In this document: in pieces, positions 13,777 to 41,196 of the stretch | How positions within the stretch are numbered: position 1 is the stretch's first letter | Layout of the letters: each line of letters begins with the position of its first letter | Source of the DNA: a virus | IMG/VR virus record: IMGVR_UViG_3300045988_123080 | Length of the DNA stretch: 64,000 nt | Reading direction: 5' to 3' (one strand) | Notes under the pieces: model-generated | What the model saw: only the letters and a program-made list of their open reading frames with translations | The model's database searches: none | Told to the model about the DNA's origin: nothing | Made by a program: the position numbers and the translations under genes

Positions 13777-13805
13777 TTGACTTCTGCAAGGGTATCCTGT
13801 ATAAT
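13777..13805 (+). promoter_or_regulatory. consensus sigma70-type promoter TTGACT-17-TATAAT (embeds GTATCCTGTATAATATAG motif)
   Basis: TTGACT 13777-13782, 17-bp spacer, TATAAT 13800-13805; 44 bp upstream of mazF-like start. Confidence 0.65.
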
Positions 13806-13848
13806 ATAGCTATGGAACGGAGCTACACTATTATAGAGGAGAAAGACT

Positions 13849-14268
13849 ATGGATAGTAATATTGACCCAAAGGTCGGAGAGGTTTGGTTGGTTGATCTAT
13901 CCAATGCGACAGGTCACCAGCAGCGCGGTATTCGACCGTTTGTTGTGACGAGCAACAACAAGCGCAACTTCTTCAGTCCCACAATCAAAGGGAATCCGTT
14001 GTCTTCCAGAATATACAAGCGTTCTCCGGTTCATGTCCTGCTCTCAAAGGAAGATTGCGATTTTCTGGATGTTGACAGTATCGTTCTTTGTGAAGAGACC
14101 GATACACTTAACAAAGGACAGTTCATCAAGAAACTTGGTGTCTTATCGGAGCGTCAGATGAATATGATCGCAATGGCAAGATGCAAGGATGAACCGTTCT
14201 TACTCGCAGCATTCCTGAGCGGCGTACAACATACTATGGAATTTCAGAATTTTGCCGCATTTGCTTGA
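13849..14268 (+). CDS. MazF/PemK-family endoribonuclease toxin-like protein
   Basis: GEVWLVDLSNATGHQQRGIRPFVVTSNNKRN...SIVLCEETDTLNK...LGVLSERQMNMIAMA matches PemK/MazF signature. Confidence 0.7.
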   Translation: MDSNIDPKVGEVWLVDLSNATGHQQRGIRPFVVTSNNKRNFFSPTIKGNPLSSRIYKRSPVHVLLSKEDCDFLDVDSIVLCEETDTLNKGQFIKKLGVLSERQMNMIAMARCKDEPFLLAAFLSGVQHTMEFQNFAAFA

Positions 14269-14321
14269 TTTTTTATAAGGGTTAATGGTACACTACATAT
14301 AATAAGAAGGAGTGTGCCACT

Positions 14322-15248
14322 ATGCTTACTGAAGAGAAAATCAACGCTTTTGCCGAAAAGTATTCTGATAGAAGCGGTGAGTTTGTTATATCGACACTTA
14401 ACCATGTTATGGATTACGAGGCCGAGCGTGGGTATGAGTTGTTTGACTTCACAAAAGATGATTTTGTAAAGATGTTTGCCAAATACAATTGGGTGAATTC
14501 AAGTCGGTCGTTCAGAAATGTAAAGTCAATAATTACAGGTTACATCAAAAGTGAGTATCGAGCGAGCATGTATGACTTAGCTGAATTCTCGGAGAGCGAC
14601 GTGAGTTCAGACAATATGTACGAGGACAAGTATTTTGCGTCAGCTGATGAGTTTGTTGATTTCTTGGACAAGTATGAAGAACCATATCAGATTCGTATGA
14701 ACGTGATTGCCGTGCTGTACTGGATTGGTCTTACTTCCGAAGAGGTTTCTAATCTGACAATTAACGATGTTGATTTTGAATCATGTACTGTTCTGAATAA
14801 GACCGGTGTTGACGCGAGATTGATGAATATCATTAAGCAGTGTTATGAAATGAAACAATACGATGCTCCAAATATGGGAGGATACAGAACGTTTTATGTC
14901 ATAAATGGTGATTACATTCTTCGCAAAACAGAGGATAGAACTGGTGCAGACAGTGATTCAAGAATGTCTACAAATACGATTCATAGTTATTTCACGCGCT
15001 TGAATGATATTCTCGAAAGAAGATATCATTCAAAGGCTTTAGACCGAAGACATCTGACCAGAAACGGCGAGTATGTCAAGGTTTATAACTACTGTAAAAC
15101 TCATCCAGAATTTAATCTTGCAGAACTTAGTTTCGGAAATGGTAAAGATCCTCTTGCGGACATTATCGGAAGAAAGTGCAGCAAGGTTGCCTACATTAGT
15201 TTCCGGCAAGGATACAAGGGCTGGATCGAATACTTCCACAAAAATTAA
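14322..15248 (+). CDS. hypothetical protein with degenerate tyrosine-recombinase-like box I region
   Basis: IAVLYWIGLTSEEVSNLTINDVDF resembles recombinase box I but Arg replaced by Thr; no HxxR/Y evident. Confidence 0.3.
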   Translation: MLTEEKINAFAEKYSDRSGEFVISTLNHVMDYEAERGYELFDFTKDDFVKMFAKYNWVNSSRSFRNVKSIITGYIKSEYRASMYDLAEFSESDVSSDNMYEDKYFASADEFVDFLDKYEEPYQIRMNVIAVLYWIGLTSEEVSNLTINDVDFESCTVLNKTGVDARLMNIIKQCYEMKQYDAPNMGGYRTFYVINGDYILRKTEDRTGADSDSRMSTNTIHSYFTRLNDILERRYHSKALDRRHLTRNGEYVKVYNYCKTHPEFNLAELSFGNGKDPLADIIGRKCSKVAYISFRQGYKGWIEYFHKN

Positions 15249-15250
15249 AA

Positions 15251-15280
15251 ACAGGGGGCTTCAGCCCCTTGATTTTAACA
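15251..15280 (+). terminator. rho-independent terminator
   Basis: acaGGGGGCttcaGCCCCttgatttt: GC stem-loop followed by T-rich tract after stop at 15248. Confidence 0.65.
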
Positions 15281-15286
15281 TTGTAA

Positions 15287-15304
15287 CTATATAACACAGG
15301 ATAC
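15287..15304 (+). promoter_or_regulatory. recurrent 18-bp motif CTATATAACACAGGATAC (forward copy 1)
   Basis: one of six near-identical copies; ~25 bp upstream of start of 15328 operon. Confidence 0.45.
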
Positions 15305-15327
15305 AGAAAATAGTATTTGAATGGAGA

Positions 15328-17403
15328 ATGATAACAATGTCTGATTTCAAGAAATTTCGTGCACTGCTGCAGGACCACTTCAATGAGATGGTGAAGGGCG
15401 AAAGCCCTCTGTTTATCACCGATGCAGACGAGGATGAACTGTATAATCTGTATCTCGACAGCTTCCCAGCTGGCACGAATGAGTTGTTCCGTAAGCGGCG
15501 CGAGTATGACTGTTCCTGCTGCCGCCGTTTCGTAAAGAACATCGGTAAGCTGGTTTCCTTTATGGATGGTCAGATGGTTACCGTCTGGGATTTCGATACC
15601 AAGTCCGATGTTTATCAGCCGGTTGTGGATGCGCTGGCTGCCTATGTGAAAACCTGCGCTGTTGTGAACCCGTATTACGTCAGCCGCAATATGATCTCTG
15701 ATAGCAAGTTTGGCACTGAGATGAACTATGAGTATGACGCTGATCATAAGGCGGTTCATACCTGGGATCATTTCGTTGTCGAGATTCCTCAGCGGTTCAT
15801 TGTGCGTCCCGATGACGTACCTACCAAGATGGCTCAGTGGCGTGATTCCGCCAATGTGTTCAAGCGCTCTCTGGAGGAGCTAACCATGGATGCCGTGGAC
15901 ACCGTGCTTGAGCTGATTGCGCAGAACAGCCTGTATCGCGGTAAGGAGTTTGAATCTCTGGTTCGTGGCTTCAAAATCGATAAGCAAGTGTATGATCGTC
16001 TGCCTGATGAAAAGAAGTCCGCTTATGTTTGGATGGCTCCCGGCGGAGCTTCGATGAACCGGCTTCGCATCCGCAATACGGCAATCGGTACTCTGCTGGT
16101 GAACCTGAGCGAGGGCATGGACGTGGATGCTGCTGTGTCTGCGTTTGAGGCCATTGTTGCTCCCGCCAACTATAAGCGTCCTAAGGCGATTTTTACCAAG
16201 AAGATGCTGGAAGACGCACAGAAAACCGTCACTGAGTTGGGCTATATGAACAGTCTGGGTCGCCGGTTTGCTACTCTGGACGACATCACCGTAAATAACG
16301 TTTTATTCTGTAACCGAGACGCAGCCCCTCGTATTACTGGCGCTGTGAATCCGTTTGAAGCAATGGCGAAGACTGTCGCAATCGATCCTAAGAAGTTCGG
16401 CCGCGCAGAGGAAATCGGTATTGATAAGTTTATCAAGGACGTGCTGCCCACCGCGACTGGTCTGGAACTGTTTATGGAGAATCGGTTTGAGAAGAATATG
16501 ACGTCTCTGATTGCTCCGCAGGATAAGAACGCGCCGTCTATGTTCAAGTGGGCGAATGGTTTCAGTTGGGCGTATACGGGTAACGTGGCTGACAGCCAGA
16601 TCCGTGAGAACGTCAAGAATGCAGGCGGTAAGGTTGATGGCGTGTTGCGTTTCTCTATTCAGTGGAACGATAAGCAGTGCGAGTGGGATGGAAATGACCT
16701 TGATGCCCACTGTGTTGAACCGAACGACTTTGAGATCTATTTTGGCAACAAACGAGATTGGAGTACTGGTGGCAATCTGGATGTAGATATTATTCATCCT
16801 GATCGCGATGAGGCCGCTGTTGAGAATATTACATGGCCTGACATCAAAAAGATGAAGGATGGTAAATACGAGTTCTTTGTTCATTGCTTCTCTAACCGTG
16901 GCGGCAAAACCGGCTTCCGCGCAGAGATTGAATTTGATGGTCAAATCTACTCCTTCAATTACAATATTCCGCTGCGTCAGACTCAGAATGTTTCTGTTGC
17001 TACTGTTGTGTTGAATGATGGGCAGTTTACTATTAAGGAACATCTCAATAGTTCTACTTCTTCCCGTGAAATCTGGGGTGTGAATTCCAATCAGTTTGTA
17101 CCGGTGTCCGTAGCAATGTATTCTCCGAACTACTGGGACGAGCAGAGTGGTAACGGTAATCGTCATTACTTCTTCATGCTCAAGGATTGTGTAAACCCTG
17201 AAAAGCCCAATGGATTCTACAATGAATTCCTGAAGGCGGAACTGCTACAGCATAAGCGAGTATTCGAGGCTCTTGGTTCTCAGATGGCAGTTCAGTCGGT
17301 AGATGACCAGCTGTCCGGCGTTGGGTTCTCTGAGACGAAACATGATTCCTTTGTTGTCAAGGTTCAGGGCGCTACTGAGCGGGTTCTGAAAGTTGTTATT
17401 TAA
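15328..17403 (+). CDS. large hypothetical protein (691 aa) co-operonic with Pnkp
   Basis: no motif recognised; first gene after recurrent motif and terminator; followed by coiled-coil protein and Pnkp. Confidence 0.5.
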   Translation: MITMSDFKKFRALLQDHFNEMVKGESPLFITDADEDELYNLYLDSFPAGTNELFRKRREYDCSCCRRFVKNIGKLVSFMDGQMVTVWDFDTKSDVYQPVVDALAAYVKTCAVVNPYYVSRNMISDSKFGTEMNYEYDADHKAVHTWDHFVVEIPQRFIVRPDDVPTKMAQWRDSANVFKRSLEELTMDAVDTVLELIAQNSLYRGKEFESLVRGFKIDKQVYDRLPDEKKSAYVWMAPGGASMNRLRIRNTAIGTLLVNLSEGMDVDAAVSAFEAIVAPANYKRPKAIFTKKMLEDAQKTVTELGYMNSLGRRFATLDDITVNNVLFCNRDAAPRITGAVNPFEAMAKTVAIDPKKFGRAEEIGIDKFIKDVLPTATGLELFMENRFEKNMTSLIAPQDKNAPSMFKWANGFSWAYTGNVADSQIRENVKNAGGKVDGVLRFSIQWNDKQCEWDGNDLDAHCVEPNDFEIYFGNKRDWSTGGNLDVDIIHPDRDEAAVENITWPDIKKMKDGKYEFFVHCFSNRGGKTGFRAEIEFDGQIYSFNYNIPLRQTQNVSVATVVLNDGQFTIKEHLNSSTSSREIWGVNSNQFVPVSVAMYSPNYWDEQSGNGNRHYFFMLKDCVNPEKPNGFYNEFLKAELLQHKRVFEALGSQMAVQSVDDQLSGVGFSETKHDSFVVKVQGATERVLKVVI

Positions 17404-17417
17404 GAGGAGAAATTATT

Positions 17418-17801
17418 ATGGAAAAGAATCTGTTTGAAATTGCAACCCGTAATCGCTATCGCTTCAACTATAAGGGTATTATGACTGTTGAAGATCTGTG
17501 GGATCTGAGTGTCGAGGCACTAGATGCGATTTTTAAGACCCTGAATCGTCAGAAGAAGACCGCAGACGAAGACTCCTTGCTGGCTGTTAAGAGTGCCGAA
17601 AATACCGAACTGGCAAACAAGATTGAGCTGGTCAAGTATATCGTGTCTGTCAAGCTGGCTGAATCTGAGGCTCGTGTGGATGCAGCCGAGAAGAAGGCGC
17701 AGCGCGATAAGATTATGAAGATTGTGGCAAAGAAGAAGGACAAGGAGCTGGAAGATATGGACGTAGACCAGCTGATGAAGAAGCTGGAAGAGTTGAACTA
17801 A
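17418..17801 (+). CDS. hypothetical coiled-coil protein
   Basis: 127 aa, Lys/Glu-rich heptad-like; GAGGAGA SD. Confidence 0.45.
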   Translation: MEKNLFEIATRNRYRFNYKGIMTVEDLWDLSVEALDAIFKTLNRQKKTADEDSLLAVKSAENTELANKIELVKYIVSVKLAESEARVDAAEKKAQRDKIMKIVAKKKDKELEDMDVDQLMKKLEELN

Positions 17802-17870
17802 AATAGACATTTTATAAAGAATTGGAAATAAATAAATAACGATAATACGTTAAGCAGAGGGAGAAAAACG

Positions 17871-20081
17871 ATGAGAACTTTGCTTCTTTTCCGTGGAGCA
17901 CCCGGATGCGGGAAGTCCACCTATATTAAAGAGCATGATCTGGAAAAGTATACGCTTAGTGCCGATACGATTCGCCTTATGTGTCAGGGTGGTCAGGAAA
18001 CCCCGGCTGGCACAATGGAGATCTCTCTCCAGAACGATGGTGTTGTCTGGGATATGCTCTTTAAACTGTTGGAGGTTCGGATGTCTCACGGTGAATTTAC
18101 CGTGATTGATGCAACGAACTCTAAAACTGTCGAAATCAATCGCTATAAGAATCTTGCCAAGCAGTACAGGTACAGAATGTACATCATCGACATGACTGAT
18201 TTGCCGATTAGCGAGTGTAAACGGCGTAATGCGCTTCGCACTCCTCTGAAGAGAGTCCCGGATGCTGCCATTGATAAAATGTATGCACGATTCGCAACGC
18301 AGAAGATTCCGTCTGGTGTGACTGTACTCTCGTCAGATGTAAATGTCCTTGAGAAATTGAACTATGTTCCGCAGGACTTTAACAACTGGAGCAAAATTCA
18401 TATCATCGGTGATGTGCATGGGTGTTACAGTTGCTTGAAAGAGTATCTTGGCGACCTGAAGGATGATGAACTGTATATTTTTGTTGGCGATTATCTGGAT
18501 CGTGGAATTGAAAATGTAGAGATGTTCAAGTTCCTTTGTGATGTTGTAGACAATAATCGGAAGAATGTGATTTTCCTTGAAGGAAATCATGAACATTGGC
18601 TAAACAAGTGGGGGCACGATGAGCCTGTTCAGAGCGAGGAGTTCGCAAACTACACTCGTCCGCAGCTTTTCAAAGCAGGGATTGACCATAATACGGCTCG
18701 TAAGGTTTATTCGAGAGTAGGACAGTGCTCCTATTTTGATTACGACGGGAAAAGATACTTCGTTAGCCATGGTGGTTTGAGTTATTTGCCTGAATTTCTA
18801 CCATTCGTGTCTACTGACCAGATGATTAAAGGTGTAGGTCGCTATCCTGATATGCTAACCGTGGCTGAGTCTTGGGAAAAATCGATGCCGGATAGCTACA
18901 TTCAGATCTTCGGTCATCGAAATGTGCAGGATGTTCCTATTGATATGGGGCATCGGTGCTACAACCTCGAAGGAAAAATCGAGTTTGGTGGATATCTCCG
19001 TTGCGTGGAACTTGAACATGGTCAGTCAATCAAATGTGTAGAAACAAAGAATGATGTGTTCCGAAAAGAGGAGCCAAAGACTGAAACTGCCGTTGAAATG
19101 AAAACTGAGTTCGATAACGCAGAACTTGTCAGTAAGATGCGTCAAAGCAAATATGTGTTTGAGAAGCGATTCGGAGATATTTCTTCTTTCAACTTTTCTC
19201 GTGAAGCATTTTATAAGAAGCATTGGGATGAGGTTTCTACCAAAGCAAGGGGATTGTTCATTAACACAAAGACGAATAAGATTGTAGCTCGAAGCTATGA
19301 TAAGTTCTTTGCGGTCGATGAGCGGAATGAAACGAGAATTGGAAACCTACAGAACACTTTGAAGTTCCCGGTGACTGCATATCTGAAGGAAAACGGATTT
19401 CTTGGCATTGTCTCGTATGATGCAGAAAAGGATGGTATGTTCATTGCAAGTAAATCCACTCCTGAAGGGCCTTTTGCAGATATGTTCCGAAAGATTCTCA
19501 TGGATACGACCTCTGATGAAGACCGTAAGAATCTGAAGGAAGTTGCAAAAGAGAATGGCTCCATCATTTTTGAAGTGATTGATCCTGTGAATGATGCTCA
19601 TATCATCGAATATAAGAAACCGCACATTGTTTTGCTGGATATTGTTGCGAATGATATGAACTTTAGTGTGATGGATTACGATGATCTGAAGCGTGTTGCT
19701 GAAAAGTGTCATTTGCAGATTAAGGAGAAGGTTAAGACTTTTGAGAACTGGAGTGAATTCTATTCTTGGTACGAGGAAGTCATGAACGAGAACTATCTGC
19801 ATCATGGCTTTGAACACGTTGAAGGCTTTGTTTTGCGAGACAGCAACAATTTCATGTTTAAGATGAAGCTTCCTTATTATAAGCACTGGAAGTTCTTGCG
19901 TGGTGTTATGCAGAGCGTTCAGAAGCGTGGCTATTATGAAAATACTGCAAAGTTGTTTACTGCTGAAGATAATTTATTCTATGGTTGGATGCGTGAACAA
20001 CGAGAGAAAGACAAAGAGTCTTTCTGCAAGAAGGGTATTATTCAGTTACGGAACGAATTCTATGAGAATCAGCACGAATAA
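17871..20081 (+). CDS. pnkp: polynucleotide kinase-phosphatase-ligase (Pnkp-like RNA repair enzyme)
   Basis: Walker A GAPGCGKST kinase; calcineurin-type phosphoesterase GDVHGC / GDYLDRG / GNHEHW; C-terminal nucleotidyltransferase-like KENGFLG; same order as Clostridium thermocellum Pnkp. Confidence 0.75.
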   Translation: MRTLLLFRGAPGCGKSTYIKEHDLEKYTLSADTIRLMCQGGQETPAGTMEISLQNDGVVWDMLFKLLEVRMSHGEFTVIDATNSKTVEINRYKNLAKQYRYRMYIIDMTDLPISECKRRNALRTPLKRVPDAAIDKMYARFATQKIPSGVTVLSSDVNVLEKLNYVPQDFNNWSKIHIIGDVHGCYSCLKEYLGDLKDDELYIFVGDYLDRGIENVEMFKFLCDVVDNNRKNVIFLEGNHEHWLNKWGHDEPVQSEEFANYTRPQLFKAGIDHNTARKVYSRVGQCSYFDYDGKRYFVSHGGLSYLPEFLPFVSTDQMIKGVGRYPDMLTVAESWEKSMPDSYIQIFGHRNVQDVPIDMGHRCYNLEGKIEFGGYLRCVELEHGQSIKCVETKNDVFRKEEPKTETAVEMKTEFDNAELVSKMRQSKYVFEKRFGDISSFNFSREAFYKKHWDEVSTKARGLFINTKTNKIVARSYDKFFAVDERNETRIGNLQNTLKFPVTAYLKENGFLGIVSYDAEKDGMFIASKSTPEGPFADMFRKILMDTTSDEDRKNLKEVAKENGSIIFEVIDPVNDAHIIEYKKPHIVLLDIVANDMNFSVMDYDDLKRVAEKCHLQIKEKVKTFENWSEFYSWYEEVMNENYLHHGFEHVEGFVLRDSNNFMFKMKLPYYKHWKFLRGVMQSVQKRGYYENTAKLFTAEDNLFYGWMREQREKDKESFCKKGIIQLRNEFYENQHE

Positions 20082-20150
20082 CTAAGATATTTTCTTCCTC
20101 CGAAAATGCCCTGCGCGGGGCTGACAGCCGGGAAAGACTGGCAATTATAT

Positions 20151-20240
20151 GCCCAAGTGATGGAATGAGGTAGACATGAAGCTCCCAAACAGCTTTGCGT
20201 GAGATATCGCGTGCGGTTTCGAATACCGCCTTGGGCACCA
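20151..20240 (+). tRNA. class II tRNA, probable tRNA-Leu(CAA), unusual C33
   Basis: 7-bp acceptor gcccaag/cttgggc + ACCA; T-arm gcggtTTCGAATaccgc; anticodon arm aagct-cccaaac-agctt; long variable arm. Confidence 0.5.
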
Positions 20241-20280
20241 GAGTCCGAATATTCACCTATTAAATACTGGAGGCAAGTTC

Positions 20281-20478
20281 ATGAAAAGAATTGAAAAATT
20301 TTCAAAAGAAGAGATCGAGCAGATTTTTAAAGAGAGCAACAACTGGGCTACTGTGGCTGAGAAACTTGGTTACAGCAAATTCGGAGGAAGCTCTAGGGAT
20401 GTAATCCAAACATATGCAGACGAAAATAATATTGACACTTCTCATTTTACGGGACAAAGAATAATTCCAAAAGAATGA
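20281..20478 (+). CDS. small hypothetical protein, possible HTH/NUMOD-like DNA-binding
   Basis: 65 aa, WATVAEKLGYS segment; sits between tRNA genes. Confidence 0.35.
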   Translation: MKRIEKFSKEEIEQIFKESNNWATVAEKLGYSKFGGSSRDVIQTYADENNIDTSHFTGQRIIPKE

Positions 20479-20499
20479 AGCTGTATTTTATACAGCTTC
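20477..20499 (+). other. 9-bp stem hairpin (processing/terminator-like) before tRNA-Leu
   Basis: gaagctgta-tttta-tacagcttc; no strong T tract. Confidence 0.3.
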
Positions 20500-20506
20500 T
20501 GTATAT

Positions 20507-20594
20507 GCCGCAGTGATGGAGTGACATACATTTCCCGCTTAAACCGGGACGCCTGAAACACGGATCGTGGGTTTGAATCCCACCTGCGGCACCA
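20507..20594 (+). tRNA. tRNA-Leu(TAA), class II
   Basis: acceptor gccgcag/ctgcggc + ACCA; anticodon arm tcccg-cttaaac-cggga; T-arm gtgggTTTGAATcccac. Confidence 0.7.
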
Positions 20595-20598
20595 TATC

Positions 20599-20671
20599 CA
20601 GAATGTAGTGTAATGGCAGCACGCTGCGTTTGGGACGCAGAAGAGCGATTCGAATTCGACATTTTGGACCA
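20599..20671 (+). tRNA. tRNA-Pro(TGG)-like, imperfect D and T stems
   Basis: acceptor ccagaat/attttgg (one GU) + ACCA; anticodon arm ctgcg-tttggga-cgcag; T-loop TTCGAAT but only 3-bp T-stem. Confidence 0.4.
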
Positions 20672-20767
20672 GTGGAGTATTCCACTTGCTTTTCATGAAT
20701 ACCTTCCTATTATTCTTGGCTCTCCAAAAAAACGGAGCAGTAGGACGCAGCAAGCCAAGTTACATAA

Positions 20768-20857
20768 TGAGGGTTCGCCAAGTGGTAAATGGCATCTGGC
20801 TTTGACCCAGACAGCGTGCTTTATAGCCGATCGTCGGTTCGATCCCGACACCCTCAA
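20768..20857 (+). tRNA. tRNA-Gln(TTG) with ~16-nt insertion in variable region
   Basis: acceptor tgagggt/accctca; Gln-like D-arm gccaagtggtaaatggc; anticodon arm tctgg-ctttgac-ccaga; 21-nt variable region; T-arm gtcggTTCGATCccgac; no encoded CCA. Confidence 0.55.
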
Positions 20858-20862
20858 TTTAT

Positions 20863-20951
20863 GGACACGTGATGGAATCGCAGACATGAAAGATTTAGGC
20901 TCTTTTGCCGTTAACAACGGTGTGCCCGTTCAAATCGGGTCGTGTCCACCA
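20863..20951 (+). tRNA. tRNA-Leu(TAG), class II
   Basis: acceptor ggacacg/cgtgtcc + ACCA; anticodon arm aaaga-tttaggc-tcttt; variable hairpin ccgtt-aaca-aacgg; T-arm gcccgTTCAAATcgggt. Confidence 0.7.
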
Positions 20952-21054
20952 TTATCAACTTATGGTTGCGTACCGTTTGTTGATCTCCTTTGACCACTAT
21001 TATTCCCGGCTCGCCAGTGATGGTGCAGTAGTGCTTTGTAAGTCGGGTTTTCAT

Positions 21055-21129
21055 GCAGCGGTCGTACAACGGCTAGTACATCAGCCTTCCAAGCTGAGGA
21101 CGAGGTTTCGATTACCTTTCGCTGCACCA
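21055..21129 (+). tRNA. tRNA-Gly(TCC) (A73 discriminator)
   Basis: acceptor gcagcgg/tcgctgc + ACCA; D-arm gtac-aacggcta-gtac; anticodon arm tcagc-cttccaa-gctga; T-arm gaggtTTCGATTacctt. Confidence 0.6.
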
Positions 21130-21310
21130 GTCTCGTACGGGTAGGATCTTTAGCGGTTAGATCCGGCCGCGCCTGTGCGAGATACCACCCCGAAAGGGGT
21201 TAACGAAATTATCCATGTACGTTATTCTCGGCTCGCTCGGAAGAGTGCAGCGTGCCTTTGTAAGCCGAGTATCCCAGCCTAGTAATGTCAGTTGCTAGGT
21301 TGGTTCTTAT

Positions 21311-21386
21311 GCGACTGTAGTTCAATTGGCAGAGCGTCAGATTTCCAATCTGAATGTTGCGGGATCATACCCCGTCAGTCGCTCCA
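21311..21386 (+). tRNA. tRNA-Gly(TCC) (U73, C2:G71, G3:C70), atypical T-loop
   Basis: acceptor gcgactg/cagtcgc + TCCA; D-arm gttc-aattggca-gagc; anticodon arm tcaga-tttccaa-tctga; T-loop atcatac non-canonical. Confidence 0.55.
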
Positions 21387-21517
21387 CACGCAGCCCCTTA
21401 CGCTGCACCGGTTACTCAGAGCCGAAAGAAACCTATATGTTACGACATGGTTGCCAAGAGTGATCATATTGGAACGCGACGTAGCTTGGATAGTGAGAAT
21501 TAAATTCTGAGGTATAC

Positions 21518-21585
21518 GGCTGGATAGCTTAATGGTAAAAGCGCTCGGAAACACCGAGAGATAAGGTTCGATTCCTTCACTGGCA
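21518..21585 (+). ncRNA. tRNA-like element / probable pseudo-tRNA
   Basis: canonical D-arm tagcttaatggtaaaagc and T-arm taaggTTCGATTccttc but no complementary acceptor stem and a 5-nt anticodon loop (ctcgg-aaaca-ccgag). Confidence 0.35.
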
Positions 21586-21613
21586 TCGCGCCGATGAAAG
21601 TCGGCGTTTGCAT

Positions 21614-21689
21614 GGAATAGTAGCTCAGTTGGTTAGAGCCGACAACTTATAATTGTCAGACGCGAGTTCAAATCTCGACTATTCCACCA
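21614..21689 (+). tRNA. tRNA-Ile(TAT) (or AUA-reading tRNA)
   Basis: acceptor ggaatag/ctattcc + ACCA; D-arm gctc-agttggtta-gagc; anticodon arm gacaa-cttataa-ttgtc; T-loop TTCAAAT. Confidence 0.65.
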
Positions 21690-21795
21690 GCCCGAAGGGG
21701 CGTACATAAAACCTGCTAGAACTTTTGTTTTATAAGCGTTGAAATAATATGACGTTGATACGTCTATTGTTTTTCGCTTATTCTCTGAGATTTAG

Positions 21796-21813
21796 CTATG
21801 TAACACAGGATAC
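21796..21813 (+). promoter_or_regulatory. recurrent 18-bp motif CTATGTAACACAGGATAC (forward copy 2)
   Basis: 18 bp upstream of GTG start of C5-MTase gene. Confidence 0.45.
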
Positions 21814-26072: not shown

Positions 26073-26085
26073 TTTTTAGTCTTAG

Positions 26086-26103
26086 CTAAGTAATACAGGA
26101 TAC
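26086..26103 (+). promoter_or_regulatory. recurrent 18-bp motif CTAAGTAATACAGGATAC (forward copy 3)
   Basis: 15 bp upstream of ATG 26119. Confidence 0.45.
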
Positions 26104-28303: not shown

Positions 28304-29827
28304 GTGGAACTCATTTCAAATATCCCGAACGAAATTCTATTTGTTGGCGCAATTTACAAGCATCCTGACTATTTGGTCGAGTATGGGCATTATGTCAAGA
28401 GCAAGTACGATTTTGCCGATGAAGCAACAAAATTTTTCTACGATGCAGCGCTAATTATTTATGAAACTCGGACTCAAGAATTTAATAAAACATCTGTTTT
28501 AACGTTTATGGCTGAAGACGAGTCCAGATTGTCCCAATACAAGCGGCTGAAGGGCTGGTCAACCATTGAATACTACATAAGCCTTGCGAATGACGATGAC
28601 ATCAAGGGGTACTTCAATATCCTGAAGAAATATTCTCTACTTCGTGAGTACCAGAGAAACGGATTTAACATTGAGGGAATCTTGAAGCATCGACAGTTTG
28701 AAATGTTTGGTGCTCAGGACATTTACAAATTGATTCGTGGCAAGGCAGACAAGATCAATACGGTTATCATCACAAACGATGATGCTGAGATTTTGAATAA
28801 TGGTCTGCTGCCAATGGTTAATGAACGTCTGAGTGTTCCTGATATGGGCTTGCCGTTCCAGTATCCTATCATGAATGATTTGTTCCGAGGATTGAAGCTG
28901 GGCACTGTGATGTTCAATGGTATGCCATCTAACGCTGGCAAGACTAGATACATGATGGCGATTGTTGCCTACGTTACATTGGTTCAAAAGCAGAAAGCTC
29001 TTCTGCTGCTGAACGAAATGGATCTTGAATCAGTCCGGTATTGCTTACTGGTCACCGCCATCAATAATCCTGAGTTTCAAGAGTTGCATGGTCATCGTTT
29101 CCATAAGGATGAGCGAGAGATCACTCTTGGAATGTACCGGGATGCAAACGGAAATTTCATCTTCCGAAAGCAAAACGAAGATGGAGAATACATAGAAAGC
29201 ATTGATGAGTTTACCGCTCGTGTCTACGAAGAAAGCGAAGAGTACCGCAATGTGCTTGATGTTTGCCAGTGGATTGAAAGCGAGTCACAAGGCTTGATTA
29301 TCGCAAAGGATGTTTCTGCTGATTATAGTGATAAGTCCCTGCGATTTGAAATCCAGAAGGCAGTTCTCACTCAGGGAGTTAAGTATGTGTTCTACGATAC
29401 TCTAAAGAACGACATTGCTTCGATTGGTGAGTGGGCAGCATTCAAGGTGACAGCAACCGAGCTTGAAGAGATTGCGAAAAATCTAAAGATCTTTATCTAT
29501 GGTAGTATCCAGTTGGCCGAAAACGCTCATGAGTATCTTCCTGATGAGTTGAATTCAAACAACATTGCTGAGTCAAAAATGATTAAGCATGTTGCTTGGA
29601 CAATGGTTCTGTTCAAGGAGATTCCAAAAGATAAGTTCGTGAAGTATCAATACATCTCTCATGACCCTGAGTGGGGCGGTGACTGTGCCCATCGGCTAAA
29701 TCCAGATAAGCGGTATTACGTTGGAAACATCGATAAGAACCGCTTTGGTGAGAAAAAGAAAATCATGTTTGAAGTGAATTTGAACCGGAATGTCTGGAAA
29801 GAGGTCGGTGTCTGCACCAGAAAGTAA
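28304..29827 (+). CDS. DnaB-like replicative DNA helicase
   Basis: RecA-like Walker A FNGMPSNAGKTRYMM resembling DnaB ARPSMGKT; 507 aa. Confidence 0.5.
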   Translation: MELISNIPNEILFVGAIYKHPDYLVEYGHYVKSKYDFADEATKFFYDAALIIYETRTQEFNKTSVLTFMAEDESRLSQYKRLKGWSTIEYYISLANDDDIKGYFNILKKYSLLREYQRNGFNIEGILKHRQFEMFGAQDIYKLIRGKADKINTVIITNDDAEILNNGLLPMVNERLSVPDMGLPFQYPIMNDLFRGLKLGTVMFNGMPSNAGKTRYMMAIVAYVTLVQKQKALLLLNEMDLESVRYCLLVTAINNPEFQELHGHRFHKDEREITLGMYRDANGNFIFRKQNEDGEYIESIDEFTARVYEESEEYRNVLDVCQWIESESQGLIIAKDVSADYSDKSLRFEIQKAVLTQGVKYVFYDTLKNDIASIGEWAAFKVTATELEEIAKNLKIFIYGSIQLAENAHEYLPDELNSNNIAESKMIKHVAWTMVLFKEIPKDKFVKYQYISHDPEWGGDCAHRLNPDKRYYVGNIDKNRFGEKKKIMFEVNLNRNVWKEVGVCTRK

Positions 29828-33398: not shown

Positions 33399-33409
33399 GG
33401 TGATTTGAT

Positions 33410-33751: not shown

Positions 33752-34049
33752 TGCGAATAATTACGTTTTATCATTAAATCTATTGGATGGTGTACATCAA
33801 TCACTCTGGAATGCTCTTAAAAGCTTGGAATTGTTTCGACAAGGAACTGCGTTTAATCAGGTTTTGAATGATGATACGCATATTATTGAACCGGATGAAT
33901 TGACTTATGTTCTTGATAAATTTGCAGAACAGCATCCTGATTGGAAAATCTGTATTGAAACTGACCATGGGACGGTTAGTGAAAAACTCAAAATGAATCA
34001 TAATTTCTACGAAGGAATGGGTAATATGATTGTCCTTGATTTTGAATGA
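33726..34049 (+). CDS. hypothetical protein
   Basis: probable start ATG 33744. Confidence 0.4.
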   Translation: MESWLTMTNANNYVLSLNLLDGVHQSLWNALKSLELFRQGTAFNQVLNDDTHIIEPDELTYVLDKFAEQHPDWKICIETDHGTVSEKLKMNHNFYEGMGNMIVLDFE

Positions 34050-34300
34050 AGATGACAAAACGACAATATAGACATAACAGAATTGATTATCGCACATATA
34101 ATTACACACTCAAGAAATATCACAACTTACACAGAGAAATCTACGCTAAAAATGCAAGAGATGCAGTTAAAATGCTAAGAAGTAAAGAATGTAATCGTGA
34201 GTTTGAGATTGTTAAAGTCTGGTTTGTTGATATTTTTGGTGATAGAAACGATAGATTTTATCCACGAACTTATGTGATTGACAAAGAAGATTATGAGTGA
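34046..34300 (+). CDS. hypothetical basic protein
   Basis: 84-aa ORF. Confidence 0.4.
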   Translation: MKMTKRQYRHNRIDYRTYNYTLKKYHNLHREIYAKNARDAVKMLRSKECNREFEIVKVWFVDIFGDRNDRFYPRTYVIDKEDYE

Positions 34301-34312
34301 GGTGAGGACGCA

Positions 34313-35077: not shown

Positions 35078-35400
35078 AGATAGAAATAAAGGTCTGCGAG
35101 TCCTTGATTATATCGACGAGAATGAAATTTTAGCGCAGTTGTCAGAAGAGGCTTCTGAAGTTGCAAAGGCGGCATTAAAGCTTCGCCGGGCTCGTGATAG
35201 AAAAGAACCCTACACCAGTAAGTATTCGTGAAGCGTGGGCTGATTTGAATGAAGAATATGGCGATGTACTCAATTGCCTATATGCGTTGTTTGATGACGA
35301 CGATGACCGTATTTATGATTTTTTTTGAACACGCAAATATTACTGCCGATGAAAAGCGCAAGCGTTGGATTAAGCGCCTGAAGGAACGTAATCAGTTTTA
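35069..35400 (+). pseudogene. MazG-like NTP pyrophosphohydrolase split into three frames
   Basis: segments ...LAQLSEEASEVAKAALKL..., IREAWADLNEEYGDVLNCLYALFDD..., NITADEKRKRWIKRLKERNQF in three frames; second break at T8 homopolymer ~35318-35325. Confidence 0.4.
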
Positions 35401-35418
35401 ATGGTGGAAGGAGAATAG

Positions 35419-38400
35419 ATGTCAGATAATTTTGTAAATCTTCATGTACATACAGCGCAGGGTTCGTTACTTGACTCTATTCTTACCGTCAAGGAACTTG
35501 TAAACTTTGCCAAAGAAAATGGCCAGAAAGCAATCGCGGTTACAGACCACGGGAAAATGCACTCTTTTGTTGACCAAGTTAAGGCTTGCAAGGAAGCAGG
35601 TATTAAGCCTATCATCGGCTGTGAAGTCTATGAAGTAGATAATCAGGCAGAGAAAGCCGATACAAAAGACTATAAACAACCTCGTTACCATCTTGTTTTA
35701 CTAGCAAAGAACGAGACCGGTTTAAAAAATCTATTTAAGATTGTTTCAAATGCTTGCGTTGATGGTATGTATAAAAAGCCTCGAACTTCTTTGAACATTA
35801 TTGAACAGAACGAGTGGGGTAAAGGTATCATCTGTCTTACAGCCTGTCAAGTTGGTCGAATGAGTAGATTACTTGTTGATGGCAACGAGACTGAAGCATG
35901 GCAGTTATGGAACAAACTGGAATGGATCTTTGATGACGTGTTTATGGAAGTACAGTCACATGATACGCCAGATCAAGCTGAGGCCAATGCAAAAATTGCG
36001 GCGTTTATTAGGAAATACGACTTGCCGTATACCATTACGACCGATGCTCACATGCTTTCTAAAGAAGATATTGATGCACACTCTGTCTTTGTTGAGATTG
36101 GAGAAGGCCGAGAAGTTGGTGAAAGCTACGTTGACTGCTATCTTCAGACTGAAAACGATGTTTTGAGAACGCTATCAAAGCAGTTTGATGAGGACTTTAT
36201 CAAAAAAGGCTGTGAGATGTCTGTGAAAATCGCAGACATGATTGATGATATCGATATCGGTCTTGGACAGCCGAACCAGATGCCAGAAGTGAAAATTGAG
36301 GGAAAATTTGATTCTCATTTTGATTATCTTCGGCACCTTGTATATGCCACTTTTAATAAAAAATTCGGGTGGATGAGTGAAGTGGAACAGCAAACCCGGC
36401 GGAATCGTATTGAGATGGAACTGGATGTTTTGAAGTATGTTGATTATATTGACTATTTCATTATGCTGTATATGCTTTGCAAAAAGGCTGATGAACGCAA
36501 AATTCCTCGTGGGTACTCTCGTGGTTCTGGCGCAAATTGTCTTTGCCTTTTTATGGAGAATGTTACTCAGATTGACTCTGTTCGTTGGGATCTTGACTTC
36601 TCTCGCTTTGCAAACAAAGGTAGAAAGAGCCTGGCCGACTTCGACTTCGATGTCTCTAAACGTCGTCGAAAGGAACTTATTGCTATTGCAGAAGAACTTT
36701 TCGGCAAAGAAAATGTTGCTCCTATCGCTACGTTTAACTCTTTGTCTACAAAAGTTGCCATCAAAGATATTGGCAAAGTTCTGAACGAAGACCCAGAAAG
36801 CCCGTATTATATGCAGATTCCGTATGAATTACGTAATGAGGTCGCCAAGTTAATTCCGACTGTAAAAACGCTGGATGATCTTGGCGAAGAAGTTGAAAAG
36901 GAAGTTCTACTAAAGGATATCCTCGGAAAGAGTGAACAGCTTTCTAATGTATATGACAAGTTTCCTCTATGGTTCAAATACGTTATGCGTCTTGAGGGTC
37001 TGCCTAAGAGTATGGGTCGCCATGCTGCCGGTACATTGATTACGCCCAAGCCTGTCATTGAATATTGTCCTCTTTGTATGGACAGAGAAGGCAATCAGAT
37101 GTGCCAACTTGAGATGCACAATGCCATGGATGATTTGTCGCTGGTCAAGATGGACTTCCTTGGTCTTGAGAATCTGGACATTATTGACGATACGTTAAAG
37201 ATGGCTGGATTAACATGGGAAGATGTCGATATCAACCATCTTGATCTAAGTGATAAGGCTGTCTATGATACCGTCTACAAGTCGGGCAACACAATTGGCA
37301 TTTTCCAGATGGAATCTGCAGAAGCACGAAAGATGTGTGTTGAAGCAAAGTGCGATAATGCTGAGGATATCATTGTTGTGAACGCAGCGAATCGTCCTGG
37401 TACTAAGGACAGCTTCCCGACGTATTGCTCCAATAAACTTCATCCAGAGACTATCAAACTACTCCATCCTGACATCAAACAGCTTTTTGCTAAGACGCAA
37501 TACATTCTTCTTTATCAGGAACAGGCACTAGCGGTATTCCGCTATGCAGGATTCCCTGAAACTGAGGTTGACAATGCTCGTCGTGCCATCGGCAAGAAAA
37601 AGAAAGATGTTATGGCATCCTTGGAAGTTCAGTTCCGAGATGGTCTTCACAAGAAAGGATGGAATGATTACCAGATTTCTGAGATGTGGGCACTAATCTT
37701 GAAGCAGGCTTCTTATTCCTTTAATAGAGGCCACGCAGTTGCGTATGGACTTCTTTCTTACCTGACGGCTTACCTGAAAACTCATTATACTGAGTATTTC
37801 ATGGCTGCGTGTATGATTACCAAGGAAGACGATTCTGGCAAAATGGGTGTGTTTATCAACGAATGCGACCGTCTACATATTCGTGTCCTTCCTCCAAGTG
37901 TCAACAAGTCTGATATGGAATTTAAGGCTGATGCGGAAAAGCACACAATCCTGTTTGGTTTGAAAGCCATTAAGGGAATGGGTGAGAGTGTCGCTTCAGG
38001 AGTGATTGCAGACCGTCCATATTCTGGACTGGCAGACTTTGTTCAGAGAGCAAACGGTGGTAAGATTGGAACCTCAAATGTTGTCAAGTTGATTAAGGCT
38101 GGCGCTATCCCGACAAAGGATAAGAAAAAAATCTTAATCACTTTTGCAAATATGGTTTTTGAGAATGAGTATAAAGAGAAAGGATTCCATGAGATGGCGT
38201 CTCTCCCTAAGATTTCCATTCTTAAAGACGAATACGGCATTGATACGGACTCTATTAAAGACAAACCAACCAGACTTGCCTTATATAATAAGGTAAGAAG
38301 GGAGCGCTGGGAAGCGGGCACATGGAATCGAAAGAAAGAAAAAGACAAAAAGCGGAATGCATTTATGCAGGCGTTTGCTGAAAAGTATATGCAAGACGAG

Positions 38401-38763
38401 CACATGTGGGAATTTGAAACTCTTTCAATGTTTTTGACTAGCAATCCCATTAAGGATGCTTGCACCTATATTGATGCTGGTCTTGATACTGTAGAAGATG
38501 GCGGTAAGGCAACTGCTATTTGTGTCATCGTAGATATCCAAAAAAAGAAGGATAAACGTGGCAACCAGTTTGCGTACTTACATGTTTACACGACAGGTGG
38601 TATTGTCGAAATGATTTGTTGGGCATCTCAGTATGCACGATATTCAAGTCTGATTTCAAAGGGTAACGATCTTGCAATCCTTTGCAAGAGAAAAGAAAAT
38701 TCGTACATTGTTGAGAAGATGAAGCCTTATAAGCAGTGGCTGCATGATAGAGAGATAGCGTAA
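35419..38763 (+). CDS. dnaE: DNA polymerase III alpha subunit (DnaE-type, PHP domain)
   Basis: N-terminal PHP signature NLHVHTAQGSLLDS...AVTDHGKMHS; 1114 aa. Confidence 0.75.
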   Translation: MSDNFVNLHVHTAQGSLLDSILTVKELVNFAKENGQKAIAVTDHGKMHSFVDQVKACKEAGIKPIIGCEVYEVDNQAEKADTKDYKQPRYHLVLLAKNETGLKNLFKIVSNACVDGMYKKPRTSLNIIEQNEWGKGIICLTACQVGRMSRLLVDGNETEAWQLWNKLEWIFDDVFMEVQSHDTPDQAEANAKIAAFIRKYDLPYTITTDAHMLSKEDIDAHSVFVEIGEGREVGESYVDCYLQTENDVLRTLSKQFDEDFIKKGCEMSVKIADMIDDIDIGLGQPNQMPEVKIEGKFDSHFDYLRHLVYATFNKKFGWMSEVEQQTRRNRIEMELDVLKYVDYIDYFIMLYMLCKKADERKIPRGYSRGSGANCLCLFMENVTQIDSVRWDLDFSRFANKGRKSLADFDFDVSKRRRKELIAIAEELFGKENVAPIATFNSLSTKVAIKDIGKVLNEDPESPYYMQIPYELRNEVAKLIPTVKTLDDLGEEVEKEVLLKDILGKSEQLSNVYDKFPLWFKYVMRLEGLPKSMGRHAAGTLITPKPVIEYCPLCMDREGNQMCQLEMHNAMDDLSLVKMDFLGLENLDIIDDTLKMAGLTWEDVDINHLDLSDKAVYDTVYKSGNTIGIFQMESAEARKMCVEAKCDNAEDIIVVNAANRPGTKDSFPTYCSNKLHPETIKLLHPDIKQLFAKTQYILLYQEQALAVFRYAGFPETEVDNARRAIGKKKKDVMASLEVQFRDGLHKKGWNDYQISEMWALILKQASYSFNRGHAVAYGLLSYLTAYLKTHYTEYFMAACMITKEDDSGKMGVFINECDRLHIRVLPPSVNKSDMEFKADAEKHTILFGLKAIKGMGESVASGVIADRPYSGLADFVQRANGGKIGTSNVVKLIKAGAIPTKDKKKILITFANMVFENEYKEKGFHEMASLPKISILKDEYGIDTDSIKDKPTRLALYNKVRRERWEAGTWNRKKEKDKKRNAFMQAFAEKYMQDEHMWEFETLSMFLTSNPIKDACTYIDAGLDTVEDGGKATAICVIVDIQKKKDKRGNQFAYLHVYTTGGIVEMICWASQYARYSSLISKGNDLAILCKRKENSYIVEKMKPYKQWLHDREIA

Positions 38764-38775
38764 GAGGGTTATAAA

Positions 38776-41106
38776 GTGGCAGATAAAAAATTCAATGAAA
38801 ATATGATCCGTTGCTACATCAGGATAAAACGAGTCTTTTATCCGAAAGATGGGAAGGAGGTGGAGCCCGGCGGCTTTGCCACTTTCTCTGCCGAGGTGGT
38901 AAAAGTCAAGCAGGGGAACCCCATTATGAGCCGATACAGTGACCTCCGACTGAAAGGCAACGTCCCTAGCCTTGATATGGATAAGACTTATTCGGTCTGT
39001 GGTGAGTATGTTCACCATGAAAAGTTTGGGGACCAGTATAAAATCGTCTATATGAACGAGTTCCAAGAGATTACTGACCCAGAAGAACAGAAAAGCTTTC
39101 TCCATTTTATCTTGACAGAACATCAGTTTGAGATGCTTTACGAAGCATTTGATAATCCGTATGAAATCATCAAGAACGGTGATATCAAGTCTCTTTGCAC
39201 TGTTAGTGGCATCACAGAAGGTCGAGCACAGAAAATTATCGATGCCTTTGAAAATAACATTGATAACAGCGAAGCATACACGAAGCTGATTGAGTATGGC
39301 TTGACTCCCAGTGCTATCGGAAAACTTGTTCATCAATATCACGGTGCAGACACTCTTGTAAGAAAGATTGAAGAGAACCCTTATGTTTTGATTGACGATG
39401 TATATGGTATTGGTTGGAAGAAAGCTGACGCTCTTGCATTGAATATGGGATTAAAGCCAAACTCTCAATTCCGAATTGAAGCTTACGTTATGCATTTTCT
39501 TGCCGACCGTGCCGAAGAAGGCAATTCTATCATCCCGGCAAACCAGACAATCAATAGTTGCATTAAGGAACTTGGCTTGGATGAGGGTGACCAAGAGATT
39601 ATCAAGAGAGCACTTTTCCATCTGCACGATGTCCGCGAAACGCTTTGGTGGAGTGATGATCGTCAGGAATTTGCTTTAACAAGAGTGTGGAATCTGGAAA
39701 ATGAGATTGCAAAGGAAATCAAGCGTCTGGCGGACGCACCTATCGAGCCGATTGGCCGAAACATGGATACTGCAATCGACGAGGCAGAGCGTGCTCTTGG
39801 TATTGAGTACACCGAGGAGCAGAGAGATGCTATTAAAAAGGTATGTTCAAACAACATTGCTATTGTCACAGGTCTAGGTGGATGCGGTAAAAGTACCGTT
39901 GTCGCTGGTGTCCTAAAGGTTCTTCGTGGTAAGTCGTTTGCCCAGACTGCACTCTCTGGTCGTGCTGCTGCTCGTATGCAGGAGATTACTGGTCAGGACG
40001 GCAAGACAATTCACCGCCTCCTTGGTTACGACATTGAAAATGGTGGCTTCGTTCATGATAAAAACAATCCTTTGGAGGAAGATATTATCATTTTGGATGA
40101 GACATCTATGGTTGGGGCCAAACTGTTCTACGACTTGATTCAAGCGATTGAAACTGGCAAGCGATTTATTATGATTGGTGATGACGGCCAGCTTGAGAGC
40201 ATTGGCATGTGCAATATTTTCAAGGATATGCTTGCCTCCAAGGTTGTTCCGGTTGCTCGCTTGACTAAGATTCACCGTCAGGCTGCTAAGTCAGCGATTA
40301 TCACTGAGAGTATCAAGGTTCGTAATGCCACGCAGTTGGTTCCTTACGGTTGGGCTGGTAATGAGATTCGTGGCGAGCTGCGTGATTTGGAGCTTGATAT
40401 CTATAAGGATGCAGGCGAGTCATTTAGCCACATCATCAATCAGTATCGTACCTTATATAATAAGGTAGGGAACGATAGTGCAAAGATTCAGATTGTACTT
40501 CCACAGAAGCTGCGTGGTAGTATCTGTACTTATGAAGTCAATAATGCTATTCAGGAAATTGTGAATCCGAGTCGTGGTCAAGCAGAAGCAAAGGTCACAA
40601 TCTATGGTGATGGCAAGGATAGGGTGTATACTCTGCGTGAGGGTGATCAGGTCATCATCAACAAGAACAACTATGAGCTTCACACATACAATCTCAAGAC
40701 AAAGAAAAAAGAAGAGAAGTGTCCGGTGTTTAACGGAAACCGTGGCATTATCCGAAAGATTGAGAGTAGCTTTATCCTGGTTGATTTTGACCAGTGGGGA
40801 ACAATCTTCATCCCTCACTACTTTGGTGGCAATAACATCTGGGCAACGCTTGAGCTCGCTTACGCTCTGAGTTGTCATAAGCTGCAGGGCAGTGAAGCTC
40901 CGTATGTGATTGTTGGCATGGACAACTCTGCGTACCTGATGCTGACGAGAGAATGGCTCTATACGGCCATCACTCGTGCCAAGAAGTATTGTGTGATTTG
41001 CGCCGAAACTCATGCTCTTGATCGGGCTGTAAAGACTTCGAGAGTTCCATATAAGCGGACGTTCTTGAAGGAATTTTTACGGAAAGAATTTGCAGAAAAG
41101 CATTGA
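38776..41106 (+). CDS. RecD-like SF1 DNA helicase
   Basis: Walker A GLGGCGKST, Walker B IILDETSM, motif V/VI LSCHKLQGSEAPYVIV; 776 aa. Confidence 0.6.
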   Translation: MADKKFNENMIRCYIRIKRVFYPKDGKEVEPGGFATFSAEVVKVKQGNPIMSRYSDLRLKGNVPSLDMDKTYSVCGEYVHHEKFGDQYKIVYMNEFQEITDPEEQKSFLHFILTEHQFEMLYEAFDNPYEIIKNGDIKSLCTVSGITEGRAQKIIDAFENNIDNSEAYTKLIEYGLTPSAIGKLVHQYHGADTLVRKIEENPYVLIDDVYGIGWKKADALALNMGLKPNSQFRIEAYVMHFLADRAEEGNSIIPANQTINSCIKELGLDEGDQEIIKRALFHLHDVRETLWWSDDRQEFALTRVWNLENEIAKEIKRLADAPIEPIGRNMDTAIDEAERALGIEYTEEQRDAIKKVCSNNIAIVTGLGGCGKSTVVAGVLKVLRGKSFAQTALSGRAAARMQEITGQDGKTIHRLLGYDIENGGFVHDKNNPLEEDIIILDETSMVGAKLFYDLIQAIETGKRFIMIGDDGQLESIGMCNIFKDMLASKVVPVARLTKIHRQAAKSAIITESIKVRNATQLVPYGWAGNEIRGELRDLELDIYKDAGESFSHIINQYRTLYNKVGNDSAKIQIVLPQKLRGSICTYEVNNAIQEIVNPSRGQAEAKVTIYGDGKDRVYTLREGDQVIINKNNYELHTYNLKTKKKEEKCPVFNGNRGIIRKIESSFILVDFDQWGTIFIPHYFGGNNIWATLELAYALSCHKLQGSEAPYVIVGMDNSAYLMLTREWLYTAITRAKKYCVICAETHALDRAVKTSRVPYKRTFLKEFLRKEFAEKH

Positions 41107-41131
41107 CAATTATGTGCGTATCCTGTATAAT
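41103..41131 (+). promoter_or_regulatory. consensus sigma70-type promoter TTGACA-17-TATAAT (embeds reverse copy of 18-bp motif) reading into tnpB
   Basis: TTGACA 41103-41108 overlapping helicase stop, 17-bp spacer, TATAAT 41126-41131. Confidence 0.65.
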
Positions 41132-41178
41132 ATAGTTATAAAAAGTCTCCATCCCGGAGGCTTAAAATTCTCTTTTAA

Positions 41179-41196
41179 CTATATAATACAGGATAC
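41179..41196 (+). promoter_or_regulatory. recurrent 18-bp motif CTATATAATACAGGATAC (forward copy 4) abutting tnpB start
   Basis: inverted with the copy at 41118-41135 around a 43-bp spacer carrying a short hairpin. Confidence 0.45.

Follow-up and report, generated by a model that had tools for sequence, protein, structure and literature searches.

A Repeated Asymmetric Box as the Probable Operator of an Integrase-Fold Repressor in an SPbeta-Like Gut Phage

We analyzed a 64,000-nucleotide stretch of the IMG/VR virus record IMGVR_UViG_3300045988_123080 (hereafter the window), in which an 18-bp motif recurs six times, in both orientations, at the starts of gene blocks. Comparative analysis suggests that this motif is the main part of an asymmetric 21-bp box, TAR-CTAYRTWAY-ACAGGATAC, and that the box is the operator of a phage master repressor, the 308-amino-acid (aa) product of the gene at 14322-15248 (+ strand). 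We give this explanation a probability of roughly 0.7, based on sequence comparison and on analogy with the phages SPbeta and phi3T. Profile comparison and structure modeling identify the 308-aa protein as a distant homolog of the SPbeta/phi3T master repressor MrpR (YopR, SroF). From the same comparisons we infer that the protein binds the box and that binding represses.

A repeated box between genes

The 18-mer CTAWRTAAYACAGGATAC was found in exact form on the + strand of the window at 15287, 21796, 26086, and 41179, and two more copies lie on the - strand at 13792 and 41118, each with one mismatch (T for A at position 7). An earlier note on this DNA had reported six copies; their coordinates and orientations were confirmed, with exact identity applying to the four forward copies and not to the two reverse ones. 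Because both reverse copies have T at position 7, the true consensus is CTAWRTWAYACAGGATAC. The expectation in shuffled sequence is 0.00 exact copies and 0.23 copies with up to three mismatches, against the six observed; the 18-bp repeated motif is real. Its 9-nucleotide (nt) core, ACAGGATAC, occurs in the 64 kb at the six box sites and nowhere else. In the whole window, all six sites lie between genes; the share of the + strand that is free of open reading frames (ORFs) of at least 50 aa is 5.5% of the window.

Alignment of the six copies extended the motif in the 5' direction by three conserved nucleotides (TAG or TAA), resulting in the 21-mer given above. The suggestion that the motif consists of directly repeated ATAC half-sites did not survive this alignment, in which half of the copies have ACAC in place of the first ATAC, and the repressor family discussed below binds an asymmetric box as a monomer.

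The two orientations occupy different positions relative to genes. Both reversed boxes (two of six) lie within the spacer and -10 element of sigma-A-type promoters, each of which points rightward, as had been seen before. Box 1 (13792-13812, - strand; TAG-CTATATTAT-ACAGGATAC) overlaps the promoter TTGACT-17-TATAAT at 13777-13805 (+; 11 of 12 matches) in such a way that its AT-rich half forms the -10 element and its core the 3' half of the spacer. This promoter drives the region 13849-15248, which begins with a MazF/PemK-like toxin gene (13849-14268, +; Pfam PemK_toxin, 2.8e-19) and contains the gene of the candidate repressor. Box 5 (41118-41138, -) lies in the same way within the spacer and -10 element of the promoter TTGACA-17-TATAAT at 41103-41131 (+; 12 of 12 matches).

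The four forward boxes lie just ahead of genes that head blocks, again in agreement with the earlier note, their 3' ends being located 2-18 nt ahead of the Shine-Dalgarno (SD) sequence. Two of them are preceded by terminator hairpins. Box 2 (15284-15304, +) directly follows the hairpin that closes the repressor operon (15253-15269, +) and is 18 nt ahead of the SD of a block with genes for a 691-aa protein (DUF8224), a 127-aa protein, and Pnkp. Box 3 (21793-21813, +) is located past the terminator hairpin 21751-21764 and 3 nt ahead of the SD of a C5 cytosine methyltransferase gene. Box 4 (26083-26103, +) is found between a yorF-like gene and a series of replication genes (97-aa, Sak4-like, helicase, primase, RecJ, PolIII alpha). 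Box 6 (41176-41196, +) is separated from box 5 by a hairpin at 41146-41162 (+) that is conserved in relatives; here it abuts a tnpB gene, and in relatives it heads the leader of a DNA ligase gene.

To follow the box in related phages, an exact scan of IMG/VR was carried out with CTANNTNANACAGGATAC, which matched at least 117 stretches. Among the matches listed, to which the following statements refer, most belong to contigs of ~80-140 kb from a single gut metagenome set, and a stretch contains at most three matches. When the core occurrences were sorted by their flanks, ~12 orthologous site classes (referred to by letters below) were distinguished, six of which are the sites of the window. Across dozens of contigs, the 18-mer hardly changes at all within a class, and the neighboring bases vary. 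In the class of box 1, for example, at least 16 relatives have an unchanged box next to a promoter spacer whose 5' half differs freely from one relative to another. Among the forward classes, relatives often cease to be similar within 1-2 nt of the 3' end of the box, and different genes follow. Thus, the box is kept at orthologous sites while its flanks diverge, which argues for selection on the box itself and not on a -10 element alone.

A recurring order was also observed in these contigs: a sigma-A promoter whose spacer contains a reversed box, a hairpin, a forward box 61-64 nt downstream, the SD, and the gene. In one class, a forward box is located a few bases past the start point of a strong TGG-TATAAT promoter, and a reversed box lies just 5' of the -35 element. 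No ORF was found downstream of the reversed boxes, in their own orientation, in either the window or the relatives. Eight unrelated contigs (L002, L007, L037, L071, L082, L088, L089, and L097) matched the search pattern through CTAAATAAKACAGGATAC-TCTTCACACGGAGG-N-ATG, a conserved region 5' of the genes of one family that apparently has nothing to do with the box system. Several pattern matches in unrelated marine-type contigs (CTAAATAAKACAGGATAC-TCTTCACACGAGG) proved to be orthologs of one unrelated upstream region and were set aside as chance matches.

The candidate repressor and the SPbeta precedent

The gene of the 308-aa protein is located between box 1 and box 2. Used alone, its sequence gave a sub-threshold match to Pfam MrpR_N_CB (4e-4) and a match to a PHROG family named integrase. 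BLASTP against YopR was not significant (E = 0.67), and no match was obtained by tblastn against phages or by comparison with GTDB genomes; phmmer against PDB sequences returned nothing significant, and P0080 had no match in viral contigs. Pairwise searches fail, and homology to MrpR/YopR is seen by profile and fold methods only.

A scan of 1.8 billion representative proteins detected 50 relatives of the 308-aa protein, and a 40-sequence alignment (A1) was built. Comparison of A1 with SPbeta YopR/MrpR by hhalign gave a probability of 97.7% (E = 2e-12, 254 columns). The Pfam MrpR_N_CB domain was matched in 32 of the 40 members, and precomputed matches to MrpR_C_cat were found in most close homologs. 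Structure prediction from the single sequence was unusable, with a predicted local distance difference test (pLDDT) score of 39; the AlphaFold 2 (AF2) prediction from A1 reached a pLDDT of 90. Using Foldseek, we found that the top seven PDB matches of this model were the phi3T SroF-DNA complex, SroF-Sar, YopR, and MrpR (9rd5, 9rgl, 8bpz, and 8a0a; E = 1.5e-8 to 7e-7), phi3T SroF (9rd5) being the best, and that lambda Int and Cre ranked lower (E = 1e-3). The earlier note had expected a helix-turn-helix (HTH) regulator at the box; the candidate has the integrase fold instead.

The family does not appear to consist of working recombinases, judging from its catalytic residues. The box-I motif is GLTSEE in place of GLRxxE, and the first catalytic arginine is present in one of the 40 members, the other 39 having T, S, D, or N at this position. 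The His and second Arg positions are also variable across the 40 members, and the C-terminal Tyr (Y298) is kept in 38. Catalytic loss with retention of the Tyr is the pattern reported for MrpR.

In SPbeta, MrpR gave ten peaks in chromatin affinity purification sequencing (ChAP-seq), all on the 15-bp SPBRE, and was found to have no recombination activity (PMC10516654). The box of SroF is asymmetric and 26 bp long; a single SroF monomer binds it and reads 24 of the 26 bp (10.1101/2025.11.27.690993). These repressors use asymmetric boxes of 15-26 bp, present in ~10 copies at early promoters (PMC10516654; 10.1101/2025.11.27.690993). Binding of a monomer to a non-palindromic box would explain an asymmetric motif of ~21 bp that is usable in either orientation.

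When the SPBRE copies were located in the SPbeta genome, they were found directly ahead of the SD at yopM, yopV, and the second yonX copy, over the spacer and -10 element of TAGACA-17-TATAAT at yonP and yorE, and 5' of the -35 element at aimR. These are the same three kinds of box position as in the phage family studied here. The genes served are also similar: the SPbeta boxes belong to the repressor operon (yopM-yopR), the replication operon (yorE-yorL), and yonP-yonO, and the boxes of this family are found at the repressor operon (boxes 1 and 2), at the replication genes (box 4), and ahead of the yonO homolog (class L). Both systems have a repeated asymmetric box, with ~10 intergenic regions in the ~134-kb temperate phage SPbeta and relatives of similar size here, together with an integrase-fold protein (cognate in SPbeta, the candidate here) that lacks the catalytic arginine and with homologous replication modules and YonO proteins. 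There are differences as well. The boxes that overlap promoters here are opposite in orientation to the genes; the repressor is ~15-19% identical to that of SPbeta and, unlike the latter, is co-transcribed with a MazF-like toxin; and the host is an uncultured gut Firmicute, not Bacillus. In phi3T the box is built of A-tracts, whereas the specific half of the box studied here contains G+C (ACAGGATAC).

The arrangement around the repressor gene provides a further reason to connect the protein with the box. The repressor operon of the window and of 20 relatives is bracketed by boxes: a reversed one lies in the promoter and a forward one ~40-50 nt past the stop codon. In three distant lineages (L124, L122, and L134), whose repressors are 30-32% identical, the gene order PemK, MrpR-like, (Pnkp), YorF, Sak4 is kept, and each of them has a different short sequence, repeated at three corresponding places: reversed in the spacer/-10 region of the PemK-operon promoter, forward past the repressor terminator, and forward before yorF. 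We take this preservation of the geometry with different sequences as no more than suggestive. The MazF/PemK-like gene is always immediately 5' of the MrpR-like repressor gene, even in L122, L124, and L134. For phi3T and SPbeta, an action of the lysis-lysogeny circuit on MazEF of the host has been reported (PMC10769878).

Based on these observations, the core idea of the earlier note, a phage regulator site that co-ordinates early and replication operons, is backed by the comparative evidence, and the following mechanism may be proposed. One monomer would clamp one box, and the orientation of the box would hence be free. At reversed boxes the protein would block initiation at strong sigma-A promoters by covering positions -20 to -1; since the promoter at 13777 drives the operon of the repressor itself, this would result in autoregulation. 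At forward boxes the protein would sit past a terminator or gene end but still ahead of the next operon's ribosome-binding site, where it could either occlude a weak promoter that lacks a -35 element and uses the CTATATAAT part of the box as its -10 element or block read-through. In a lysogen, the RNA repair, methylase, replication, and ligase genes would be kept silent, and in relatives the YonO-type polymerase as well. Multiple operators over early promoters and repressor autoregulation recall CI/Cro of phage lambda. The lambda operators, on the other hand, are palindromic, bound by HTH dimers, and arranged in two clusters, whereas the boxes here are asymmetric, spread over at least 27 kb, and would be bound by an integrase-fold monomer.

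Several points weigh against this explanation. The link between protein and box is drawn from homology, adjacency, and analogy. The box itself, TAGCTATATAAYACAGGATAC, is unrelated to CAAATACAAAWAATATGTATATA of SPbeta and shares no sequence with the phi3T box either; in addition, the SPbeta boxes are all in gene orientation, whereas two of six are reversed here. No recognizable -35 element was found 5' of any forward box in the window, and the forward boxes could equally be promoters. In the 64-kb window (of a phage of ~135 kb), neither a LexA-type box nor a Sar-type antirepressor was identified; GAAC-N4-GTTC has its sole occurrence in the window inside thyX, and no aimR-like gene was noted there. 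The repeats of the distant lineages are 2-3 short sites each and statistically weak (in L124, 11 matches against 4.6 expected).

Alternative explanations of the box

The first alternative is that the box is itself a phage-specific promoter, recognized by a YonO-type polymerase, a phage sigma factor, or an activator, and that middle transcripts start a few bases 5' of the ribosome-binding site. Such a promoter would account for the ~20 bp that are conserved directly 5' of genes and in gene orientation in four of the six copies, for the position of forward copies past terminators and without a -35 element, and for the -10-like TATAAT or TATAAC inside them; moreover, a YonO homolog is encoded by relatives. 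The hexamer is imperfect in many forward copies, ending in C or beginning with A. The remaining two of the six copies run opposite to every gene, as do classes A, E, I, and J in relatives, and the reversed copies lie within sigma-A promoters. In class H the forward copies cover ~+6 to +26 of a strong extended -10 sigma-A promoter, next to which a second promoter would be redundant. SPbeta YonO, in turn, uses one late promoter 5' of yonK (PMC5467207), whereas the boxes here head early-type operons, including yonO. On balance, we consider a promoter function of the box unlikely.

Other alternatives concern the exchange of genes at the boxes, of which there are two examples in the window. The first is a two-gene cassette (15305-17801) that begins exactly after box 2 and encodes the 691-aa DUF8224 protein (phrog_1735), whose true start is probably the ATG at 15337, and the 127-aa protein (phrog_2018). 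In relatives, it is the Pnkp leader (17802-17870 in the window) that follows the box. The 691-aa gene is 78% identical in L133, whose repressor is 30% identical.

The second example is the tnpB gene next to box 6. In relatives without tnpB, the ligase site consists, from 5' to 3', of a promoter that contains a reversed box, a hairpin, a first forward box, a terminator hairpin, another forward box, GCAAGGAGG, and the ligase start CTTTATG. In the window, the SD and start of tnpB directly follow the first forward box of this site (box 6), and an IS605-type element without its left end occupies 41197-42546 (+), between box 6 and the ligase start. Homologous elements in the gut phage contigs MT835706 and MT835555 share a left end of at least 70 nt that is absent in the window and contains no box. 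The right end, up to ~42546, is common to all three elements and includes a RAGATH-18 RNA (42408-42480; Rfam). This comparison points to a left-end-truncated IS605-type element that was fused to a box of the ligase operon and is not part of the box system; tnpB is thus not the native regulon member that the earlier note had suspected. The presumed guide of the omega RNA, located 3' of the right end, coincides with the beginning of the ligase gene, CTTTATGACAGATAAAG, and would therefore match relatives without the element. The possibility that the motif is a target of the tnpB guide RNA, following the logic of TldR-like repressors, was ruled out, as the right end runs into the ligase start and not into the box.

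Short conserved units of promoter and hairpin that border variable gene cassettes are known as promoter early stem-loop (PeSL) cassettes in T4-type phages; PeSLs are defined as promoters and not as repressor boxes, and the likeness noted here to the boxes is one of layout. In addition to serving as operators, the boxes may act as docking points at which foreign cassettes are captured immediately 3' and come at once under repressor control, in an integron-like manner but without a catalytic integrase. Such cassettes would include that of DUF8224, the tnpB without its left end together with its guide RNA, and alternative genes for methylases or replication-associated functions; DNA synapsis by the repressor might be involved. 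We regard this as a speculative addition with rather low odds.

It has also to be considered whether the boxes are primarily recombination sites, that is, crossover points for cassette exchange mediated by the integrase-fold protein or by the tyrosine recombinase encoded at 6610-7479. Both cassettes described above begin right after a box, in classes B, C, D, and K relatives lose their similarity within 1-2 nt of the box's 3' end, and the DUF8224 gene is shared by phages with very different repressors. Ordinary homologous recombination also predicts mosaic junctions at the sole conserved sequence. The 21-mer has no dyad, and no inverted arms surround a 6-8-bp crossover spacer, as they would in the core site of a tyrosine recombinase. 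The integrase-fold family is without the first catalytic arginine, its His and second Arg positions are variable, and MrpR shows no recombination activity (PMC10516654). Recombination at the boxes would, moreover, be compatible with operator function. A role as dedicated recombination sites is, in our view, improbable.

A function of the box as RNA, in which it would be an element of the 5' untranslated region (UTR) involved in translation control, processing, or protection from cleavage tied to the MazF-like toxin, is very improbable. The forward copies would lie in the 5' UTR just ahead of the SD, and a MazF-like endoribonuclease gene is present beside the repressor gene. Nevertheless, no secondary structure is shared among the forward boxes (z-scores from -2.3 to +1.8), no Rfam family covers the motif, and the reversed copies, which either are 5' of the promoter start point or would be antisense, are equally conserved.

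Finally, the idea that the motif is part of the tnpB insertion element (an end or target motif) or a generic AT-rich -10 consensus, prompted by the copy that abuts tnpB and by the TATA-like 5' half of the box, is refuted: five copies have no insertion element nearby, element-free relatives keep the box at the ligase site, homologous elements have another left end and no box, and the invariant ACAGGATAC belongs to no -10 consensus and is confined to the six copies.

Phage type and implications

Gene content identifies the source of the window as a distant SPbeta-like temperate phage of ~135 kb from a gut Firmicute. Based on Pfam and PHROG, genes were assigned to a MazF-like toxin (13849), Pnkp-type RNA repair (17871), a C5 cytosine methylase (21841), a Sak4-like ATPase (26446), primase (29837), RecJ (30856), PolIII alpha (35419), RecD2 (38776), and ligase (42540), as well as to ThyX, NrdD, and two integrases. 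A tblastn comparison with SPbeta showed that the genes at 28304, 29837, 30856, and 35419 are homologous to and collinear with yorI, yorJ, yorK, and yorL, the yorK match covering the full length at 35% identity. YorF, Phage_SPbeta_YorH, and AAA_24 (Sak4 family) genes were scored in relatives. Relatives also encode a 930-aa YonO homolog (BLASTP 2e-25; DFDGD motif; Pfam RdRP 9e-15), for example at L030:1340-4132 (-), where a class-L forward box is located ~30 nt 5' of the start; this gene lies outside the window. Megablast of 20 kb against annotated phages found no close relative, weak matches to Ruminococcus phages being the sole DNA matches.

Two further tyrosine recombinase genes were observed, one at 6610-7479 (a 289-aa Phage_integrase protein, conserved in relatives) and one at 62587-63753 (a 388-aa Tn916-type integrase with an N-terminal DNA-binding domain); they are consistent with a temperate or integrative lifestyle. 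Upstream of the repressor operon, tandem sigma-A-type promoters without a box (TTTACA-16-TATAAT-like and TTGACC-16-TATAAT) are present at 13333-13391; they sit in a ~28-nt direct repeat, ACAAAAAGATGT(G)TATAATATAT, 5' of a 114-aa gene at 13414-13758. Eight to nine tRNA genes (three Leu, Pro, Gln, two Gly, Ile-tat, and a weak Rfam match at 21519-21585) were found at 20151-21689, directly 3' of the gene for Pnkp-type RNA repair.

The kind of system proposed here is already known from SPbeta; what sequence comparison suggests to be new is the specificity of the box, the host range, and the inverted-box geometry. If the box is the operator of the 308-aa protein, the integrase-fold master-repressor system known from Bacillus and characterized in 2023-2025 would reach a widespread family of ~135-kb human gut phages. 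The unrelated box would offer a second natural specificity for the study of how a recombinase fold reads at least 20 bp as a monomer. A regulon may also be predicted for these uncultured phages, comprising the repressor-toxin operon, RNA repair, methylase, replication, ligase, and the YonO polymerase. In addition, the boxes seem to mark borders at which these phages swap genes, contributing to genome mosaicism, and one of them has become fused to a tnpB gene whose guide RNA would match the uninterrupted ligase site of competitor genomes.

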